A stretch of DNA of 10,828 bases from Candidatus Heimdallarchaeota archaeon (GCA_030614005.1 JAUWKS010000092.1:1-10828); one strand, 5' to 3'. Counted from the stretch's first letter, positions 249-10,516 are shown. Translations and numbers: made by a program. The notes: generated by a model from the letters alone, not told the origin.

Positions 249-575
249 TCAGTGTCCCATTTGTCCATAAAAAAAGGAACGGTCGGGGCAATCAAATGGT
301 ACATCAAGAGTAAGTAGACCATCTTCATAATTGGCTTTCACTTTGCTGGTATTAGCATCGCAAAGAAATTTCAATTCACTAACATATTCAATGTTGATTC
401 CTTTCTTTGCATTTAGTCGCATACCGGATTTGATTACTTTCAAATCAATATCATTCTTTTTGACTCCAGGTAATGCTATTGAAATGTGATAATGATCTTC
501 ATCGATATCATTACAATCACACCCGCAATCCACACAGGGATATACCCAGATTTTTTTAGTGTCAGTTTCAGACAT
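249..575 (-). CDS. Small heat-shock protein, Hsp20/alpha-crystallin family (108 aa), Cys-rich N-terminus, possibly 3'-disrupted
   Basis: Alpha-crystallin-domain motifs YHISIALPGVKKNDIDLKV and VKANYEDGLLTLDVP. A TATA-like AT tract lies at about 598-612 upstream. No C-terminal IxI/V motif. Confidence 0.9.
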   Translation of the reverse strand: MSETDTKKIWVYPCVDCGCDCNDIDEDHYHISIALPGVKKNDIDLKVIKSGMRLNAKKGINIEYVSELKFLCDANTSKVKANYEDGLLTLDVPFDCPDRSFFYGQMGH

Positions 576-2223: not shown

Positions 2224-4965
2224 TTACTCTACTCTAATTAATTCACTGGCAGATTTTCTGGAAATAACACGAGTAGCAATAAATGCACCAAATCCAGCTA
2301 GTACTATAGCAAAAGCAAGTGAAAGAATGCTTATCAATGGTGGAGCGACCAGTGGAATTTTCCATTCTTGTTCTATGGCATCAATCAAGTAAAGATAATA
2401 GCCAAGGAAGTAACCCATTAGTCCACCTAAAATGCAAGAACTTATAGTGAGAATTGTGGATTCCAGAATAAATATTCCATCGACATCACGATTTTTCAAG
2501 CCAATTGCTTTCAAGATTCCAATGGTTTTATGCGACTCAGCCACATTGCTGTATGTTGAAGCAAAAACCCCGAACAAAGCAATTACTATTGTAAATACCA
2601 TCATAACATTTACCAGTATTACTCTTGTTTGATTGTCTTCAGCTATTCTATCAACCAATTCCTTCTCGATAAGCACAAACAATGCATTACTTTCATATCT
2701 TCTTCGCAATTCTAGCCCCACAGTTTCTGCCGCTTCGGGGGATGTAGTTTCTAAGAAGATCCTATAAGCACTATTTTGAAAATCTAAATCGGTTAAATAC
2801 GACCAAGTATCTTCACCAATAAGAATAGTGGAACCCGAGGCAAAACGTTCTTGTTCATGGATTCCAGACATTCCAGGTAATTTTGATGCTATACCAACAA
2901 TGTCCAAAAATACATCGTGAGTGTACCCTAATTCAATCAATACAGGATTCAGAGTTAAAAGTTTGAGTCGTAGTGTGTCACCTATACCTAGTTCTAATTC
3001 TTTCGCTAATGCAGTGCTGATTATTACAGTATTATTTCCTTGCAAATCCTCAAACATTGCATCAGAACCTTCCGAATAAACTATAAGATCATCATAAAGT
3101 GGGTCAATAAAATTGGACGGCACACCCAAAACACTAACACCATACGATTCGAAAAATATTTGATCTCCAGCAACGCTCCACAAACCAGTTAATACAGAAC
3201 TGATTGGCAGAGTACTAAATGAACCGGTAACTACATCATCAAATTCTTCAATTATATCCTCCATTATTTCAGATCCATTAATATCATAGGTTGAATCGAA
3301 AAGAGTGATATCAGAACCAGTTAAAGAACCGATGTTTTCAATCAAACCTTGATCTTGAACTAGAAAAGTAGTTGAAATAACCATTGTGGATCCAAAGGAA
3401 ACGATGAACATCATAGCAGTTATTGCATTTCTTCTCCGATTTCGTTTTAGAAACATATGGACGATTTTGTAGGTCTTTTTGAAAATAGGTTTGATGATAA
3501 ATAAAAACAAGTTTTCAACTAACGGTTCAATTACCCCAACGAGGATTAGAGAAAGACCAAAACCAAATCCAAAGAACAACAGTAAGAGGATAGTGAAAAA
3601 TAAAGTATCTGAAGAAGAAACAGTCATAATTGGAATTAACAAAAATATTAAACCAGAAGCAACTGAAATTGAAAAACCTATCAAAAATAATGTTTTGTTA
3701 GGTCCTCGATCTCGCACAAGTTTTAAATCAGGTTCATCAGCTTTCAGTGGATTTAATCCACTGATAATACTCTTTCTCATTGCACGTAAAGCAGGGAAGA
3801 GAGAAGCAATTATCGCCACACCAACTCCTAAAAGAACGGAATAGAGCACCATTATTGGTGAAAGAGTAAAAGCTATATCAAGTCCATTACTCTGCAGAAA
3901 CAACTGCACCAAATAGGCTACCAAATAGCTAAAGCCTATTCCAATAACAGACCCGGATAAACAAGTAAAACTTGCTTCAAAAATAACCAAAATGAAAATT
4001 TGTCTTCGTTTTGCGCCAATGGTTCTATACAAAGCAAACTCTCGAGTCTTTTCTTCAACACTGACAGTCATTAAAGAAAAAATTAGAAAACCACTTACAA
4101 TCAAGCTTAAAGCAGCAAGAGAATTGAATAAAATGCGTAGAAAAACTAGCCCTGTTCCTCTGTTTTCGAGAGCACTAGCTATTGGCAAATATACTTGATA
4201 ACCAGGACCTATCGTATCTTGAACAAGCACACCAATCGTTTTTGCTTGAGCGATAGTTTCCTCGGGTTTATTGATATCATAAATTTCATCCCTATTAGCA
4301 AATTGAGCAACTACTTCAGTAGCAATGCCTGGACCACCAATAAATGGCTCTAATGTTTCAATATTAACCAGAATCGTATTCTCTTTAGCAGAAGGTAACA
4401 TACCTTTGTTTACAAATGTAGCATCCAATGTAAGATTTAATTTAGTAAAACTAATTTCAACTATATATTGTTCGCCAATTTCTAATTCTAAGGCTTGAGC
4501 AATTTCCTGTCGAACCCAACAATGATTAACTGGCAATACACCGATATCTATGGAAGAAGATAATTCAAGGTCACCAAAACCAATTGTTTTCTCTCGAACA
4601 GGATCAATCCCTAAGAAAGTCACTGTAAAATTTTTATTCGCACCTTGAAAACGAGCACCAGGTAATTCATAACGAGGTGACGCCCCCGCTACTTCAGAAA
4701 GATTGTTTATTGAATCAATCAGAGATTCATAATCATAAATAGGCGGAATATCTGTTATATTGTAGTTTTCTATTCGAATGTCAACCTGACCAGTTTGTTC
4801 TGAAATTCTAGGAAGATAAGACAAAGAGATTGCATCAATAATGACATTAGAAACGCCAAACATTCCGATAGCTATAGCTAGTGCTAACACTCCAAGGAAA
4901 AACCGGAATTTCTTTGCACGAATTGATTTAAGTGCATATTTTGGATAGGAAAGAAATTTCACCAT
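2224..4965 (-). CDS. ABC transporter permease, FtsX/MacB-like, two-repeat (913 aa)
   Basis: N-terminal TM, large extracytoplasmic domain, then a TM bundle, with the unit occurring twice. FtsX-type motifs SVEEKTREFALYRTIGAKRRQI and SHKTIGILKAIGLKNRDV. Starts 11 bp after the ATPase stop. Confidence 0.93.
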   Translation of the reverse strand: MVKFLSYPKYALKSIRAKKFRFFLGVLALAIAIGMFGVSNVIIDAISLSYLPRISEQTGQVDIRIENYNITDIPPIYDYESLIDSINNLSEVAGASPRYELPGARFQGANKNFTVTFLGIDPVREKTIGFGDLELSSSIDIGVLPVNHCWVRQEIAQALELEIGEQYIVEISFTKLNLTLDATFVNKGMLPSAKENTILVNIETLEPFIGGPGIATEVVAQFANRDEIYDINKPEETIAQAKTIGVLVQDTIGPGYQVYLPIASALENRGTGLVFLRILFNSLAALSLIVSGFLIFSLMTVSVEEKTREFALYRTIGAKRRQIFILVIFEASFTCLSGSVIGIGFSYLVAYLVQLFLQSNGLDIAFTLSPIMVLYSVLLGVGVAIIASLFPALRAMRKSIISGLNPLKADEPDLKLVRDRGPNKTLFLIGFSISVASGLIFLLIPIMTVSSSDTLFFTILLLLFFGFGFGLSLILVGVIEPLVENLFLFIIKPIFKKTYKIVHMFLKRNRRRNAITAMMFIVSFGSTMVISTTFLVQDQGLIENIGSLTGSDITLFDSTYDINGSEIMEDIIEEFDDVVTGSFSTLPISSVLTGLWSVAGDQIFFESYGVSVLGVPSNFIDPLYDDLIVYSEGSDAMFEDLQGNNTVIISTALAKELELGIGDTLRLKLLTLNPVLIELGYTHDVFLDIVGIASKLPGMSGIHEQERFASGSTILIGEDTWSYLTDLDFQNSAYRIFLETTSPEAAETVGLELRRRYESNALFVLIEKELVDRIAEDNQTRVILVNVMMVFTIVIALFGVFASTYSNVAESHKTIGILKAIGLKNRDVDGIFILESTILTISSCILGGLMGYFLGYYLYLIDAIEQEWKIPLVAPPLISILSLAFAIVLAGFGAFIATRVISRKSASELIRVE

Positions 4966-4976
4966 CTAGTTTCCCT

Positions 4977-5744
4977 CTAATCTTCAATAGAATCATCTAA
5001 AATAGAACCCTCAATACCTGGAGTGGTTTCTTCTTGAACGATTTTTCCATCTAACATATGCAAAATGCGATCACATACTTTTGCTGTTCTGCGATCATGA
5101 GTAACCATTAAAATCGTCATACCCATATCTTTGTTTAAGTCATTAAGAAGTTTCAAAATTACTTTTGCTGAAGCAGAATCTAAATCTCCAGAAGGTTCAT
5201 CGCAAATCATCAAATCAGGATTATTAGCCATGGCTCGAGATATAGACACTCTTTGTTGTTCTCCACCGGACAATTCAGTAGGTAAATGCTTTTCTCGACC
5301 TTTCAAACCAACTAATGCTAATAATTCTTTAGCTCTTTGTTCCCTTGAAGATTTTAAATCGCCTCGGAAGACCATAGGTACTTCAACATTTTCTTGAGCA
5401 CTTAAAAGGGGCAGTAGATTGTAAAATTGGAAAACAAAAGATATTTTATCTAAGCGCAAATCAGCGAGTTCATTATCTGATAAGCTGGTTAACTCGACAC
5501 CTTCAAATTGAACAAGACCTCTATCGGGACGATCTATTCCACCAATAATATTTAACAAGGTAGTTTTCCCGCAACCAGACGGACCCATAATCGAACAAAA
5601 TTCACCACGTTTTAAATCAAAATCAATACCACGAAGAGCAGGTATTGCAGTTCGACCTAAGAAATATGCTTTATGTAAATCCTCAACCTTAACAATTACA
5701 TCGGAACTATTGTTAACAGCTTCAGCTTGTTTCTCTGTTGACAT
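4977..5744 (-). CDS. ABC transporter ATP-binding protein, LolD/MacB-like (about 255 aa)
   Basis: Walker A GPSGCGKT, Q-loop VFQFYNL, signature LSGGEQQR, Walker B/D-loop MICDEPSGDLD, H-loop VTHD. ATG at 5744 is preferred to GTG at 5753 because GGGTG upstream serves as the RBS. Confidence 0.96.
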   Translation of the reverse strand: MSTEKQAEAVNNSSDVIVKVEDLHKAYFLGRTAIPALRGIDFDLKRGEFCSIMGPSGCGKTTLLNIIGGIDRPDRGLVQFEGVELTSLSDNELADLRLDKISFVFQFYNLLPLLSAQENVEVPMVFRGDLKSSREQRAKELLALVGLKGREKHLPTELSGGEQQRVSISRAMANNPDLMICDEPSGDLDSASAKVILKLLNDLNKDMGMTILMVTHDRRTAKVCDRILHMLDGKIVQEETTPGIEGSILDDSIED

Positions 5745-5860
5745 CTTCTTCACCCAAGAAATATAAGTAAAATATAATCACTTCAACAATTAATTTGTTA
5801 TTACATTAAGATATTGAATTAATACGGTTACTGATTTATATTCGTTTTCAAATTGAATTT

Positions 5861-6724
5861 CTATACGAAATCAAAACCTATTTCTTCTGCAGTTTTATCT
5901 ACAAGATCTCCGAAGTCCTTTTGGCGTCTTCGTAAAATTGGACGAAGAATTGCACGACGAATTAACATTCGAAGATATTTTATTTTATTAAATGGTTTGG
6001 CACAATGTAAACCTGAAGCCATAATCGCTTCTGCTTGATCACCATTTGGTTTTAGTTCTTGCATAATAACACCATTGTACCGAATTTTCTTGAGATAATT
6101 GAAAAAATCATCAAAAGGCATTTCTCCAAGTCCAAGAGGAAGATGTGAATCTTCAGTTTTTGTGCAATCGGAAATGTGAACATATTCAATATCTTTCTCC
6201 AACTCCTTAGGAAGATCCAACCATGTTTGCCAGTTATTGATGTATCTATGAGAAATGTCTAAACAATGACCTGCTAAATGGCTTCCTAGATAATCCTTAG
6301 CTTGTAAATAGAAATCCATAAATTCATCATCAGTTGGTCCGACAACATTTTCAAGTACAATAGGCGTATCTATCTGGGCAAGTCTGCTAAACATTAAATC
6401 ATAAGAACAGTTAGGATCTTCAGGAAAATGGGCAAGAGTATATGAGATATTGATATCCTTCTTTCTACTGTTAACAAATGAAGTAACTTCCTGCATTTGA
6501 ACTTCGAAAGTATTACTTTTTGTGGAGAAATCAAAACGATCTCTATTAAAAATTGGTAAATGAAAAGTAGTGGTTGATCTTCCCAGCGATTTGATAACTA
6601 ACTCCACTTTTGGAATAATGCGCCAATTAAATTCAAAATGTTGAATAAGTGTCATCTTCATAAGACGAACAATAAGATCCATAGGTAACCCTCGAATAGG
6701 TTCCAAACCAAAACCGATTTTCAT
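5861..6724 (-). CDS. Sugar-phosphate isomerase/epimerase, AP-endonuclease-2-type TIM-barrel metalloprotein (about 287 aa)
   Basis: Metal-ligand motifs LEN, LDISH, HISD, DSHLPLGLG and QEL in the expected order. ATG at 6724 (MKIGFG) follows GGTG; the ORF track extends to 6754. Confidence 0.85.
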   Translation of the reverse strand: MKIGFGLEPIRGLPMDLIVRLMKMTLIQHFEFNWRIIPKVELVIKSLGRSTTTFHLPIFNRDRFDFSTKSNTFEVQMQEVTSFVNSRKKDINISYTLAHFPEDPNCSYDLMFSRLAQIDTPIVLENVVGPTDDEFMDFYLQAKDYLGSHLAGHCLDISHRYINNWQTWLDLPKELEKDIEYVHISDCTKTEDSHLPLGLGEMPFDDFFNYLKKIRYNGVIMQELKPNGDQAEAIMASGLHCAKPFNKIKYLRMLIRRAILRPILRRRQKDFGDLVDKTAEEIGFDFV

Positions 6725-6856
6725 AGCACACCACTTGATATTATTAGTTAACAATTAAATAGTGGTTTATTAGATGACTAACAATATAAAAGCAGCTTCT
6801 ATAATCGTAAATGAACTATGAAAAATAGTCATCCATTTTTGATACATAATACACCA

Positions 6857-8635
6857 CTAAATATTCGTTATTTTCCATTTCTGATCATCATAATCATATA
6901 ATTCATGTAACGGAACATAATTGGATTTATGTAGTTTTATTGTGTAAAAAGAAGGGGAGAAATCTGCGTCAGTTAATACTTCTTCAATAATTTTTCGAAC
7001 AGGATGTTGATGAGAAACACCAGGAATATGAAAAAGAAATCGGTCATATAGATTTATTTGACCCAAAAAAGCAAATATCCGCAATTTGTCTACAATAGCT
7101 TGAAGTTTTCCATTCGTTTTTTCATCTACTATTGGAAGCTCAAAGGCTAAAACATCTGAACCAAATCTCACGAAATTTCTCATAAATAAAGAGAAAGACA
7201 ACAAATCTTTTCTTCGTGCTCTTAGCTCATTTTGATATAACAAATCTGTTTGAGATTTAACATCGGTTATTGGAATATTTTTTTCAAAAAAGAACTTTTT
7301 GAATTCATTAATATTGACAGCATATCTTGCTTGTAATAGATATTTGCCCTTTAGAACTGAAAGAAAATACAAAAGATTATAATCAAGAACAACAGGTTTA
7401 TCCGATATTGGAATAACTGAACTTCTTTTTTCATGATGGAAAGTAAATTTTCTTAAATATTGATCTCCTTGAGTGATTAATTTCTTGAAGATATTTAATG
7501 TTGGATTATAGGGAAAATTCGTAATAGCAAAATAACGATATTTTTCTCTAACTAATTGAATTGTATAACTAGAAATCAATCCGGAATCTTTCATTTTTCT
7601 GAAGCGTGTGCGGAGTTGATCACTAATTATATGAGGGCAGATAAGAGAAGGAGAATAGATTATTTGAGATTCACCATCATAGCCATTATAAAGTGATTTT
7701 AAATATGGAATCGTTAGAAGCAGAGAATTTATTTTCTGTACAAAAATGTCTTTAGTAGTTGTAATTTTTATAAAATAATTATGAAGGTTTATTTCTTCAT
7801 AATTTATATGGGCAATCCAATAAGTGGAATAATTTTCATTTAAAGCTTTGAATCGTTTAGCAATTGTCTTTTGCGACAATTTATCTTTCTTTGCAATCAT
7901 AGAAGTTGAACTCTTTTCATAACCGAATTCAAAAAGAGTTTCAATAAGATCAATTAATTTTTTATTTGTATAAATTGGTAAAATAACATTTTCTGCCTTT
8001 ACTGTAATTGAAGTGACCCATTGTGAGAAGTGTTTAACTTTCTCTTGAGTAGATTTTGAAAGATCATTTACTAAAACATAAAATTCATCAAAAACATCAG
8101 AAAAGGGAATGCTCTTCGATATTAATAGGATAAGTAAATTGTCCCAATAGATAGGACTTGCTCCAGCTATTTCCTCTGAATAAATTTTGGCTCTTATTGC
8201 GGAAAGCATTGGGTTATCAATAGTACTAATTCCGAGCACAGCAGTTAACAAAACAATAGTAATGATATTCAGTATCGCTTCTTCTTCTTCGCAAAAGTTT
8301 TTTTTGACAAAGTTCTTAAAACTTTGTTTTATTAGAAAGAAAGAGAGCAGATATCTTTTTGTGTTATACTGTAAATCCAATATCCATTTAGCAATAATTG
8401 TGCGTTCATTTATACAAGCAAGACCAAAATAGGGATTATAATCCCTCCTAACTTTCCCGAAAGCTAATTTTAGCTCATTATCAAATGCTGATTTCTTCAA
8501 AGAAATTGACAGTAAAGGTATAATTTCCTTAGATAGAGAACTAAGTGTTTTGGAAATCTCAGTCCCAGTTTTTTCTGCTATTTTATCTATGGCATCAATA
8601 GCATACAATACTTTCTCTCTGAGATCGTTGTTCAT
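6857..8635 (-). CDS. Large putative transcriptional regulator (592 aa): unexplained N-terminal domain (about 220 aa) plus Lrp/AsnC-like HTH-effector unit and a degenerate second unit
   Basis: HTH-like segment STSMIAKKDKLSQKTIAKRFKALNEN (aa 243-268) followed by INYEEINL (aa 277-284), like the Lrp linker. A second LDYNLLYFLSVL segment (aa 417-428) resembles an Lrp N-terminal helix. C-terminus LYDYDDQKWKI. The ORF is certain; the family call is by motif recognition only. Confidence 0.65.
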   Translation of the reverse strand: MNNDLREKVLYAIDAIDKIAEKTGTEISKTLSSLSKEIIPLLSISLKKSAFDNELKLAFGKVRRDYNPYFGLACINERTIIAKWILDLQYNTKRYLLSFFLIKQSFKNFVKKNFCEEEEAILNIITIVLLTAVLGISTIDNPMLSAIRAKIYSEEIAGASPIYWDNLLILLISKSIPFSDVFDEFYVLVNDLSKSTQEKVKHFSQWVTSITVKAENVILPIYTNKKLIDLIETLFEFGYEKSSTSMIAKKDKLSQKTIAKRFKALNENYSTYWIAHINYEEINLHNYFIKITTTKDIFVQKINSLLLTIPYLKSLYNGYDGESQIIYSPSLICPHIISDQLRTRFRKMKDSGLISSYTIQLVREKYRYFAITNFPYNPTLNIFKKLITQGDQYLRKFTFHHEKRSSVIPISDKPVVLDYNLLYFLSVLKGKYLLQARYAVNINEFKKFFFEKNIPITDVKSQTDLLYQNELRARRKDLLSFSLFMRNFVRFGSDVLAFELPIVDEKTNGKLQAIVDKLRIFAFLGQINLYDRFLFHIPGVSHQHPVRKIIEEVLTDADFSPSFYTIKLHKSNYVPLHELYDYDDQKWKITNI

Positions 8636-8760
8636 TGAAAATCAACTTGATTTACTAAATTAATAATATTAGTAATATTGTAACCAATATATTAAGCAAA
8701 TTATCCAATATTAATCTCCTTTACTTAAATAATTATCTAAAGTATAGACCTAATTCCTAG

Positions 8761-8783
8761 AGAAAAATAGAGGGTATTTTTCT
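8761..8783. promoter_or_regulatory. Inverted repeat, candidate operator in the divergent intergenic region
   Basis: AGAAAAATA-gaggg-TATTTTTCT: perfect 9-bp arms with a 5-bp spacer, between the regulator and the peptide gene. Confidence 0.4.
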
Positions 8784-8945
8784 ACCTCCACCTAAAGTCA
8801 CTTTATTCGATTCTAAAGAATCTAGATGAGGTTTTATGCATTTTAAACAAATGAAAACTATAACCTCAAAACTATTTTTGCCATTTGTATATAGAATGTT
8901 TTAGAGTTTAATTACTCGCAAATTGCCGAGACACGTCACTTGAAC

Positions 8946-9001
8946 TATAAAACAATCAACACATAATATATGGCAATAACTCTAAACAAAAAAATAAGGT
9001 G
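8946..9001 (+). promoter_or_regulatory. TATA box and ribosome-binding site for the small peptide gene
   Basis: TATAAAA at 8946-8952; AGGTG at 8997-9001, 7 nt before TTG at 9009. Confidence 0.55.
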
Positions 9002-9008
9002 TAAAAAC

Positions 9009-9146
9009 TTGAAAAAAATCAATCCAAAAATAATAGGCATAGTATTACTATTGCTATCTTCGTTGATAGCAGGTAGTTTAGCTGTTCAGGAAGGATACGG
9101 GGATCCAACATTAGTACCAGCATCCGATGATGACATGGGTGGATAA
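9009..9146 (+). CDS. Small secreted-peptide precursor, 45 aa (MKKINPKIIGIVLLLLSSLIAGSLA-VQEGYGDPTLVPASDDDMGG); not in the ORF track
   Basis: Manually translated. TTG start with AGGTG RBS; an in-frame ATG at 8970 gives a 58-aa alternative. Basic n-region, 15-residue hydrophobic h-region, S-L-A c-region, TAA at 9144-9146, followed by hairpins and a T8 tract. Confidence 0.75.
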   Translation: MKKINPKIIGIVLLLLSSLIAGSLAVQEGYGDPTLVPASDDDMGG

Positions 9147-9191
9147 TTGAAAGGAAATAATTGATTGTGGGTAATTAACAAAATATGAGAG

Positions 9192-9255
9192 GGTAAATAT
9201 CAATTTACCTGAGGAGTGTGCTGGAAATACACATTCCTCAAAACATCTTTTTTTT
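9192..9255 (+). terminator. Tandem hairpins plus T8 tract after the peptide gene
   Basis: GGTAAAT-atca-ATTTACC (9192-9209); GAGGAGTGTG-9 nt-CACATTCCTC (9211-9239, one G-U pair); T8 at 9248-9255; lies between convergent genes. Confidence 0.6.
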
Positions 9256-9283: not shown

Positions 9284-10119
9284 TTATCCTAATGGTCCAT
9301 TAGAAATTATCTCTTCGAAAGAAGCTAAATCTCCTCTCCAGGGGTTTAAACATTCGACAAACCAATTTACACCCGTTTCTGAATAGTTTATTAGTACTTT
9401 CTTAAAGCCCTTATGGGCATTAAAATAAGTAGAAAAAACAACATCAAAGGCTCCTTTTTGTGTACGATATTTCTTAATGTAAGCAACAATTTCTCTATAT
9501 TCATCAGGTGTTAGTGGATCTACAGAACCAGCTTTCAATGGAAAAACGCCATCATATTTTGCAGCTCTACGGAATGGTTTTTTGTTAGGCCAAGTACCTC
9601 CAACCCATATTGGTATTCTTGGTTGTTGAGTAGATTTTGGTAAAAATAGCCTTTCCTCGACTTTGTAATGTTTACCAGAATAAGAGAACATTTCCCCGGA
9701 CCATAAACCTTGGAGAATATCTAAACTTTCATCAAGCATTTCACTGCGGAGTTTAGCATTACCCTCAATACCAAAAGGTTCAAACTCCTCTTTTGGATCT
9801 GCACCAAGCCCTACGCCTAATGTTAAACGACCATTTGACAATTGATCAATTGTAGCTGTTTCTTTAGCTACATCCCAAGGTTGCTTCCTAGAAAGAGGTG
9901 TTACTGTAGTACCAAATCGAATTTTCTTTGTATGGTTAGCTATTGCAGTCAAAACAGTCAATGGATCCAAAACATTAGCATCTTTCATAAAGATGCATAA
10001 ATATGATCCCAAAGATAGAAACCATCCCAACCATTTTTTTCAGCTATTTTGGCTAGCTTAATGATTGATTGTACACTCCAATTTGGACCATAATTAGCTA
10101 AATATACACCAAACTTCAT
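9284..10119 (-). pseudogene. LLM-class (luciferase-like) flavin-dependent oxidoreductase split by a one-base frameshift near 9986-9993 (pseudogene or assembly error)
   Basis: The track ORFs 9985-10170 (MKFGVYL...GWDGFYLWDHIYA) and 9284-10030 (KDANVLDPLTVLTAIA...GTTVTPLSR...GRLTLGVGLG) join into one protein of about 278 aa if one base is restored in GCA TCT TT ATG AAA. ATG at 10119. Confidence 0.85.
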
Positions 10120-10357
10120 ATTTCCAGATATCCTCTTGAAAAGAAACTGTGAATTAAACTTCAAAAGCATTATTTAATTCCATATCAATTATAGAGTTTC
10201 TAATTCATAAATTTGCTTTTTCATTTTGTTTATCTAAAGTACTTTAAGAGGAATGAAAAACGAGTTAAAAAAATTAAATAAGAATAAAAAAAACTAGAAT
10301 GAAAAATAACCTGTAAAGATTATATCTCAACTAGATTTCTTAATTAGGATATTATTT

Positions 10358-10516
10358 CTAATATCTTCTTGGCTTTCGTTTTTGGTAGCAATCGCGACAG
10401 TAAACTGGTCTTTCGCCATCTGGTTTGAAAGGAACTTCTGTTTCTATTCCACAGTCAGCACATGTGACTTTATGCATTTCTCTTGGTTCGCGGTTGTAAC
10501 CGTTATAGTTATTCAT
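10358..10516 (-). CDS. CxxC-x17-CxxC zinc-finger microprotein, 52 aa (MNNYNGYNREPREMHKVTCADCGIETEVPFKPDGERPVYCRDCYQKRKPRRY); not in the ORF track
   Basis: Manually translated. CADC and CRDC are separated by exactly 17 residues, with the family-typical VPFKP...RPVYC. GGTGA RBS at 10526-10530, 9 nt upstream of the ATG. Confidence 0.93.
   Translation of the reverse strand: MNNYNGYNREPREMHKVTCADCGIETEVPFKPDGERPVYCRDCYQKRKPRRY

Follow-up and report, generated by a model that had tools for sequence, protein, structure and literature searches.

The window analysed here is a contig of 10,828 nucleotides from a Candidatus Heimdallarchaeota archaeon (GCA_030614005.1, JAUWKS010000092.1:1-10828; contig C79 of an assembly with 3.6 Mb, 126 contigs and 90% completeness). 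At positions 6857–9255 it carries two linked genes: a large one encoding a cytoplasmic multi-domain protein of 592 amino acids (P0002; 6857..8635, minus strand) and a small one encoding a pre-pro-peptide of 45 amino acids (9009..9146, plus strand). The two genes diverge from a control region of 373 bp (8636..9008), delimited by the limits of the open reading frames (ORFs) and by an alignment of orthologous spacers. Our findings show that the two genes are co-inherited and went through joint duplications that gave at least three clades, each with its matching type of peptide. The novelty lies in a cassette of propeptide and cytoplasmic regulator that is assembled from unrelated parts and found in a new domain of life. 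By analogy with the peptide pheromone pairs of the RRNPP family, we regard the two genes as a credible candidate for what would be the first system of peptide-based signalling in archaea. To the claim that they accomplish peptide-dependent regulation on the RRNPP logic, although with unrelated parts, we assign a probability of about 40%.

The pairing is seen in the distribution of both genes. P0002 has 34 close homologues, and a search of 1.84 billion proteins yielded 118 representatives, of which about 65 are full length, all with ~560–625 amino acids. The large protein is encoded in all 11 other genomes of the window's family with two to six copies each, and in none of 70 genomes from six other families of the class, barring one bin. 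The copy in this bin (L015 on G010:C25), the only one outside the family, is nearly identical to L021 (G074:C41), with branch lengths of 0.008 and 0.010, and judged from the sequences it is likely a mis-binned contig or the result of a very recent transfer. The phyletic pattern of the peptide gene exactly equals that of the large gene, and in about 34 of 38 assessable loci a peptide gene is located 20–1020 bp from a large gene. An earlier note on this DNA, which had read the two genes as a secreted peptide and its receptor, had made the reading depend on just such a small leader-type ORF next to regulator homologues. Its observation is confirmed, its interpretation is supported in part, and the pair passed every genomic check that the note had listed as a possible refutation. 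No third gene is common to loci of different clades; the unit of inheritance is the pair itself.

In a maximum likelihood tree of 29 large proteins, the well-supported clades, between which the proteins share 22–25% identity, each have their own type of peptide tail and their own gene arrangement. Clade A with eight proteins, among them that of the window, has divergent peptide genes upstream of the large gene, with tails built on the core G-D-P-T-L/V and ending in DDGGG, TGTD or DDMGG. In clade B with ten proteins, the tails end in D-T-G-I/L followed by F, Y or W and the genes are mostly divergent, two loci being co-directional. Clade C with eight proteins is characterized by Gly-rich tails and by peptide genes that lie downstream in convergent orientation, a second copy being frequent upstream. 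In its loci L019, L039, L040 and L041, two near-identical peptide genes often flank the large gene, one upstream on the same strand and the other downstream and convergent, 20–47 bp from the stop codon of the large gene, a spacing that invites antisense or transcriptional interference. The three proteins of clade D (L048 on G080:C14, L049 on G075:C38 and L050 on G074:C28), which are monophyletic with 100/100 support, are “orphan receptors” with no peptide gene within 3–4 kb; they may read peptides encoded elsewhere, or none. The co-variation of peptide and regulator for which the earlier note had asked is thus present, as the tails follow the regulator clades. Its head-to-head layout is true of the window's pair, of clade A and of most of clade B, but gives way to same-strand and convergent layouts elsewhere. 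A further arrangement is found on G072:C45, where two large genes stand in tandem, each with a peptide gene.

The coding nature of the small ORF is indicated by conservation and not by its shape. A crude scan of the 3.6-Mb genome revealed 92 signal-peptide-like ORFs of ≤60 amino acids, so that a signal-peptide-like shape alone is not significant. A profile built from 17 peptides (alignment A2), however, matched 49 places in all 12 genomes of one Heimdallarchaeia family, with open frames of 44–80 amino acids at 46 of the 49, and 107 clusters of 43–83 amino acids in a collection of 5.8 billion proteins, all of them labelled “hypothetical protein” and derived from Heimdallarchaeota-type assemblies. 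In the window's own genome two further copies of the peptide-type ORF are present, one of which (contig C112) stands immediately upstream of a P0002 paralogue with 39% identity. In eight orthologues the start codon at one aligned position is ATG, GTG or TTG, and the ratio of nonsynonymous to synonymous substitution rates (dN/dS) in the leader is 0.05–0.35 with saturated synonymous sites, the tail evolving faster than the leader. These values argue for strong purifying selection on the leader. Since frame and start are kept across the family while synonymous sites are saturated, sequence comparison identifies the small ORF as a protein-coding gene; it is not the truncated remnant of a longer secreted protein, as the frame lengths at the profile matches show. 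That the ORF is unannotated holds for the raw window, but its public Heimdallarchaeota homologues have been called as “hypothetical protein” of 43–60 amino acids.

Within the small gene, which starts with TTG and ends with the stop codon at 9144–9146, a leader of 25 residues (9009..9083) precedes a tail comprising residues 26–45 (9084..9143). In the alignment of family peptides, the leader consists of the n-region MKKINPK and an uncharged h/c-region ending with AGS-LA, and the tail is acidic, rich in Gly, Asp and Pro and carries a clade-specific motif (G-D-P-T-L ... D-D-x-G-G). The peptides of 97 trimmed family members have 43–51 amino acids. Their basic N-terminal consensus MKK-I/V-NPK is almost invariant; alignment A2 shows no variation at M1, K2, K3 and P6 and hardly any at N5 and K7. 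The uncharged span has 18–19 residues in 84 of the 97 members and usually contains A/G-G-G/S. In the tails of the family, Gly makes up 27%, Asp 10% and Pro 9% of the residues and Cys is nearly absent; their net charges range from 0 to −6. Most members have small residues in the −3/−1 pattern after the h-region, S-L-A before V26 in the window, where the cleavage site was read from the −3/−1 rule only. From these features the leader appears to be a Sec-type signal peptide or, alternatively, a signal anchor with N-in, C-out topology.

Three other kinds of export signal were considered and rejected. A type IV pilin-like (class III) signal was dismissed by eye as no Gly or Ala stands ahead of the hydrophobic stretch, and a lipobox as there is no Cys. 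With regard to a double-glycine leader, known from ComC and class II bacteriocins, a G-G/S pair is common at positions 22–23, yet the leader is of the hydrophobic export type. In double-glycine systems an amphipathic leader ending in GG is cleaved by a C39-peptidase ABC exporter encoded nearby, whereas the ABC system near the window's pair is of the MacB/FtsX type, has no C39 domain and is not conserved across clades.

For the large protein and the peptide alike, Pfam, NCBIfam and PADLOC gave nothing above threshold. The model of the large protein has a predicted local distance difference test (pLDDT) score of 83 and a predicted template-modelling (pTM) score of 0.76. The best solved match is the siroheme decarboxylase NirDL (4czc with E 4e-6 and 4ch7 with E 1e-5; ~350 columns, TM-score 0.5 by target, Foldseek), because this enzyme is likewise a double Lrp/AsnC-like fusion. 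Many single Lrp/AsnC regulators follow with a Foldseek probability of 1.0 and 140–155 aligned columns, and clusters of the AlphaFold Database (AFDB) named Lrp/AsnC or winged helix-turn-helix (wHTH) regulators align at residues 220–590 with E-values down to 1e-14. Below threshold, the sequence matches P. furiosus LrpA at the HTH (E 0.055 and 0.11) and, in some members, HTH_11/HTH_24; the nearest language-model clusters are archaeal HTH_24/AsnC proteins. Weak Csa3/CasR rows for one member of clade C reflect the wHTH alone. The beta-alpha-beta-beta-alpha-beta order typical of RAM domains occurs twice, as indicated by the secondary structure and by alignments that span both halves of each module.

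According to these predictions, residues ~220–590 represent two consecutive Lrp/AsnC units, a distant structural relative that curated models do not see. The first module (residues ~222–375; 7511..7972, minus strand; Foldseek and AFDB) comprises a wHTH of three helices (225–268) and an alpha/beta RAM-like domain, and its recognition helix is conserved and basic. The second module (residues ~415–592; 6860..7393, minus strand; secondary structure, pLDDT, Foldseek and AFDB) comprises a wHTH that is modelled with lower confidence (419–475) and again a RAM-like domain. The earlier designation as an HTH protein is backed by this fold but not by any Pfam match above threshold, and the proposal of an Lrp/AsnC-like receptor with an extra N-terminal domain that is not based on TPR repeats is borne out by the predicted structure.

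The combination of a winged helix with an alpha/beta RAM domain is that of Lrp/AsnC regulators such as P. furiosus LrpA (1i1g). Classical members of this feast/famine family have ~150 amino acids and sense amino acids, whereas the module is present twice per chain in P0002, stands behind an extra domain of 215 residues and reaches no Pfam or NCBIfam cut-off. Two fused Lrp/AsnC-like modules are also the architecture of NirDL and AhbA-AhbB. However, the identity to NirDL is 11–12% and the N-terminal domain of P0002 has no counterpart there. No genes of haem or d1 biosynthesis were found near the pair, its neighbours being a TIM-barrel protein, an ABC transporter, an acetyltransferase and others. 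Judged from context and sequence, P0002 is not a siroheme decarboxylase, and nothing suggests this activity.

The N-terminal domain (residues 1–215; 7991..8635, minus strand) is helical with a small three-stranded sheet. When modelled alone it reached a pLDDT of 87.6, and Foldseek found nothing for it in the Protein Data Bank. The top rows of VIA-align are DPP III, thermolysin, M1 aminopeptidases, minigluzincins and BlaR1 (Z 5–7, 100–190 residues); weak rows for M48, SprT/YgjP-like and IrrE-N-like proteins have AFDB E-values of 0.1–0.25 and Atlas TM-scores of 0.35–0.45. The domain of none of 84 full-length members contains an HExxH-type motif, the only match being at residue 358 of P0041, and this absence rules out an active zincin protease. 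The helix corresponding to the zincin active-site helix (residues 90–109) has one invariant Lys. We therefore describe the domain, tentatively and with reference to the model, as zincin-like and catalytically dead. The coupling of a zincin-like domain to helix-turn-helix regulation resembles ImmA/ImmR, IrrE/PprI and BlaR1/BlaI. In contrast to these systems, the N-terminal domain has no HExxH and modest fold scores (Z 5–7), and the partner is a small exported-type peptide instead of a cleavable repressor.

The spacer between the two genes contains signals of unequal quality. A Shine-Dalgarno-type site, AAGGTG (8996..9001, plus strand), lies 7 nt before the TTG of the peptide gene and is kept in six of eight aligned orthologues, L013 having GAGGTA and L014 being gapped there. 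A candidate TATA box, TATAAAA (8946..8952, plus strand), was read 57–63 nt before the start codon, in a column without conservation in distant orthologues. Downstream of the gene, a candidate terminator of the peptide transcript (9210..9255, plus strand) consists of a hairpin with 11-nt arms (9210–9220 and 9230–9240, 91% complementary) and a run of eight T (9248–9255). It was not flagged by the consensus terminator scan because the T-run begins 7 nt past the stem, and simple promoter and terminator scans of the region gave background level. All features that the earlier note described are present at the positions it gave. Of the TATA box, ribosome-binding site and terminator that it ascribed to the small gene, the AAGGTG site is conserved in orthologues; the other two are candidates. 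The intergenic palindromes it mentioned are weak, AT-rich and at the level expected by chance for such DNA. A longer reading of 58 amino acids from the ATG at 8970 was rejected, since it has no ribosome site and the added residues are not kept in orthologues. Upstream of the ATG of P0002 there are just two open codons, and a scan of the whole window with Rfam revealed nothing in the spacer.

The only long invariant stretch in eight otherwise diverged orthologous spacers is located at 8720..8760. This cis block consists of an AT-rich, TATA-like element, TTTACTTAAATAAnTATCTAAAG, followed after 6 nt by CCTAATTCCTAG. It lies 84–125 nt upstream of the ATG of the large gene in the window and between −79 and −125 across the loci of clade A; it is absent from the other clades, and a regulon search found no second copy in the window genome. 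We consider the block a candidate promoter plus paralogue-specific operator, which could serve either gene. The large gene and the spacer together (6857–9008) have a G+C content of 27–31%, compared with 33–38% in the flanking genes.

The region holds one of the copies of a self-contained module of two genes, which is confined to a single family of Heimdallarchaeia. Based on the analogy with known systems, we propose the following mechanism. The large protein would regulate transcription at the control region common to both genes, while the uncharged segment of 18–19 residues would take the peptide to or through the membrane. Exported by Sec and then trimmed, the peptide or a fragment of it would be the cue that sets the activity of the regulator, either after re-uptake via Opp/Dpp-type binding proteins or in a membrane-embedded form. 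Several paralogous pairs per genome could then act as separate channels. Capacity for import is encoded in the window genome with 9–10 SBP_bac_5 (Opp/Dpp-type) genes over the Pfam cut-off. The secretion and maturation of the peptide and its sensing by P0002 are steps that we infer from the RRNPP systems; the complex prediction of P0002 with the full 45-residue peptide, using alignments made for this analysis, gave a score of 0.01 that counts neither for nor against binding.

RRNPP pairs are recognized by a signature of five criteria: a propeptide of 10–100 amino acids, a signal for Sec and signal peptidase I (Sec/SPI), a receptor of ~250–500 amino acids, a TPR domain and direct neighbourhood of the two genes (PMC10075063). 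The module agrees with the signature in the small propeptide (45 amino acids, 43–51 in the family) and in the adjacent genes, and departs from it in the size of the receptor (592 amino acids, ~560–625 in the family) and in the TPR domain. With respect to the Sec/SPI signal, the n-region is basic, the h-region is uncharged and small residues stand at −3/−1, as judged by eye, and the span also has the length of an anchor. As Pfam found no TPR match in P0002 or in 21 homologues, the large protein is no RRNPP member.

Compared with PapR/PlcR, NprX/NprR, Phr/Rap, AimP/AimR and AloP/AloR from Bacillota and their phages, the likenesses are those of organization. As in the Sec-dependent RRNPP systems, a gene of 40–50 codons with a Sec-type leader and a pro-region of ~20 residues stands beside the gene of a cytoplasmic regulator (PMC10075063, PMC7425212). 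Also shared are the many paralogous pairs per genome, each with its own peptide, and the occurrence of orphan receptors (PMC10075063, PMC7425212), as well as divergent, co-directional and convergent layouts and a C-terminal motif that is conserved within a subfamily (PMC10075063, PMC7425212). In contrast to RRNPP receptors, the large protein has neither TPR repeats nor an Xre-type helix-turn-helix; in their place stand, in the predicted structure, a dead zincin-like domain and two Lrp/AsnC units. Further differences are the Asgard host and the N-terminus of the leader, which is nearly invariant across paralogues. By this analogy the module would work like an RRNPP pair without being a member of the family. 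In the literature that we searched, accounts of peptide pheromone/receptor pairs are confined to Bacillota with their mobile elements, and neither this family nor an archaeal peptide pheromone system is described, which given the limited search is no proof.

Several observations weigh against peptide-dependent regulation. Three complete loci of the large protein have no nearby peptide gene, and about nine peptide genes are located away from any large gene, beside unrelated neighbours. The co-diversification of tails and regulators is equally expected if a regulator and its target are simply inherited together. The uncharged span of 18–19 residues could be a stable transmembrane anchor instead of a cleaved signal. 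The N-terminal heptad is far more conserved than Sec targeting needs and more conserved than the receptor itself, which points to a role of the leader outside the signalling model. Finally, the best solved match of the large protein, NirDL, is an enzyme, and the fold therefore does not ensure DNA binding.

Amino acids are the typical ligands of Lrp/AsnC regulators, and divergent neighbouring genes are often under their control. It is thus possible, though on balance we hold it for unlikely, that the pair is a regulator with its target and nothing more: P0002 would sense something else in its RAM pockets, such as an amino acid or another small metabolite, and activate the peptide gene without feedback, and the peptide would have its own extracellular job at the surface, in antagonism or in the binding of metals or minerals. 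The predicted fold is that of regulators with this habit, the spacer contains an operator-like block that is specific for one clade, and orphan peptide genes and orphan regulators do occur. Duplication of such a unit would yield co-inheritance and clade-matched tails equally well. However, it is not obvious what a Cys-free tail of ~20 residues of Gly, Asp and Pro could do on its own, and the peptidase-like domain is left without a role. Nor does a simple regulator explain why a large protein of three parts should serve a single gene of 45 codons, with no other gene co-travelling.

The conservation of the heptad finds its explanation in another model, which we nevertheless consider improbable. 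Here the leader would stay uncleaved in an N-in, C-out orientation and the cytoplasmic MKKINPK would be bound by the large protein, perhaps in the groove of the dead zincin-like domain, so that the regulator is tethered or released at the membrane in the manner of anti-sigma factors or of small-protein modulators such as MgrB. A span of 18–19 uncharged residues is long enough to cross a membrane; it is preceded by three lysines and followed by an acidic tail, in keeping with the positive-inside rule. No change is seen at M1, K2, K3 and P6 across clades whose receptors have 22–25% identity to each other, with synonymous changes beneath, and no other model accounts for a stronger conservation of the seven N-terminal residues than of the receptor. 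Extended peptides are bound by zincin folds, although the evidence for the fold is weak in this case. On the other hand, seven cytoplasmic residues form a very small handle, the clade-specific tails are not explained if the invariant N-terminus makes the contact, and most members have signal-peptidase-like small residues at −3/−1 after the h-region.

Winged-helix domains recognise the leaders of peptides that are made by ribosomes and modified after translation (RiPPs). The large protein could accordingly be a modifying or maturation enzyme, or a chaperone, for which the small ORF encodes a RiPP-like precursor; the Lrp fold would have been taken over for catalysis, in the way known from siroheme decarboxylase, with a winged helix to read the leader. 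The match to the enzyme NirDL (E 4e-6) and the pattern of a conserved leader with a variable core agree with this model, as does the recognition of RiPP leaders by winged helices. Nevertheless, we judge it very improbable: no catalytic motif was found, HExxH being absent, and the pair has no conserved companion gene for biosynthesis, transport or immunity. Moreover, the leader is a hydrophobic export signal and not an amphipathic RiPP leader, and the tail has no Cys and is poor in residues that are usually modified.

The weakest alternative, a chance open frame in AT-rich intergenic DNA with the large gene alone being real, could invoke the 92 look-alike ORFs and the failure to find RNA evidence for the small ORF, but it has next to no likelihood and is for practical purposes refuted by the comparative data, namely by conservation in 12 of 12 family genomes and 107 database clusters with frame and start position kept despite saturated synonymous sites.

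Downstream of the large gene, a xylose-isomerase-like TIM-barrel gene (5861–6754, minus strand) is followed by a MacB/FtsX-type ABC exporter (4977–5753 and 2224–4965, both on the minus strand) with an ATPase of 258 amino acids and a permease of 913 amino acids that has two FtsX domains. The MacB-type transporter and the TIM-barrel gene were rejected as parts of the module, as they are kept only among close orthologues of clade A, in two further loci (L036, L038), but not in other clades. A sub-threshold Rfam match to the C/D-box snoRNA snoR41 within the FtsX permease gene (4564–4650, minus strand; 33 bits against a gathering threshold of 40, E 0.008) is probably due to chance. The third peptide gene of the window genome, on contig C34 (L007:6340-6492, plus strand), has a clade C-like tail and no paralogue of the large protein nearby. 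It is convergent with the gene of a 772-residue TPR protein (L007:6548-8866, minus strand; TPR_12 with E 3e-46, MalT-like TPR). This protein was rejected as an RRNPP-like receptor: orphan peptide genes elsewhere adjoin unrelated genes for an LVIVD-repeat protein, an M28 peptidase and an enolase, and the TPR adjacency on C34 is therefore probably a coincidence.

The window (G+C 27–40%, i.e. AT-rich) contains further genes. An ORF for a luciferase-like monooxygenase with a TTG start (9284–10030, minus strand) matches positions 52–192 of a Pfam model with 314 positions, and it may lack its N-terminal portion, or this portion may lie in another frame; an ORF of 61 amino acids just upstream of it (9985–10170) has no Pfam match. 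An ORF of 52 amino acids (10358–10516, minus strand) encodes a clear treble-clef zinc finger (PF23477, E 1.6e-21), a small gene that is easily overlooked. In an Hsp20-family protein of 108 amino acids (249–575, minus strand), the alpha-crystallin domain is preceded by an unusual N-terminus rich in Cys (C-x2-C-x-C-x-C). Public relatives of the window proteins carry Heimdallarchaeota or Asgard labels. The same DNA is also present in metagenomes from marine sediment and cold seeps; the datasets listed as containing the stretch are DNA datasets only, with no RNA dataset among them. A tblastn search of a phage collection gave no match and thus no sign of viral origin.

In conclusion, the meaning of the pair does not depend entirely on signalling. 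Even without it, the genes define two linked protein families in clear partnership, with ~107 peptide clusters and ~65 full-length receptor clusters, and they provide a putative example of a peptidase fold stripped of its catalytic motif. Quorum sensing in archaea is not known to use anything but small molecules. If signalling is true, Archaea would have their first system of peptide quorum sensing, in which the RRNPP logic was invented independently, and peptide communication would have evolved convergently in archaea. Heimdallarchaeia are the archaeal lineage closest to eukaryotes. More speculatively, and at odds that we would call doubtful, they might run peptide communication from cell to cell, or autocrine communication, over several orthogonal channels per genome, with Sec-exported pro-peptides and cognate cytoplasmic receptors that combine a dead zincin as peptide sensor with a double Lrp for DNA binding. 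Such receptors would represent a new architecture and would offer a handle on the social behaviour of organisms that are almost uncultured.

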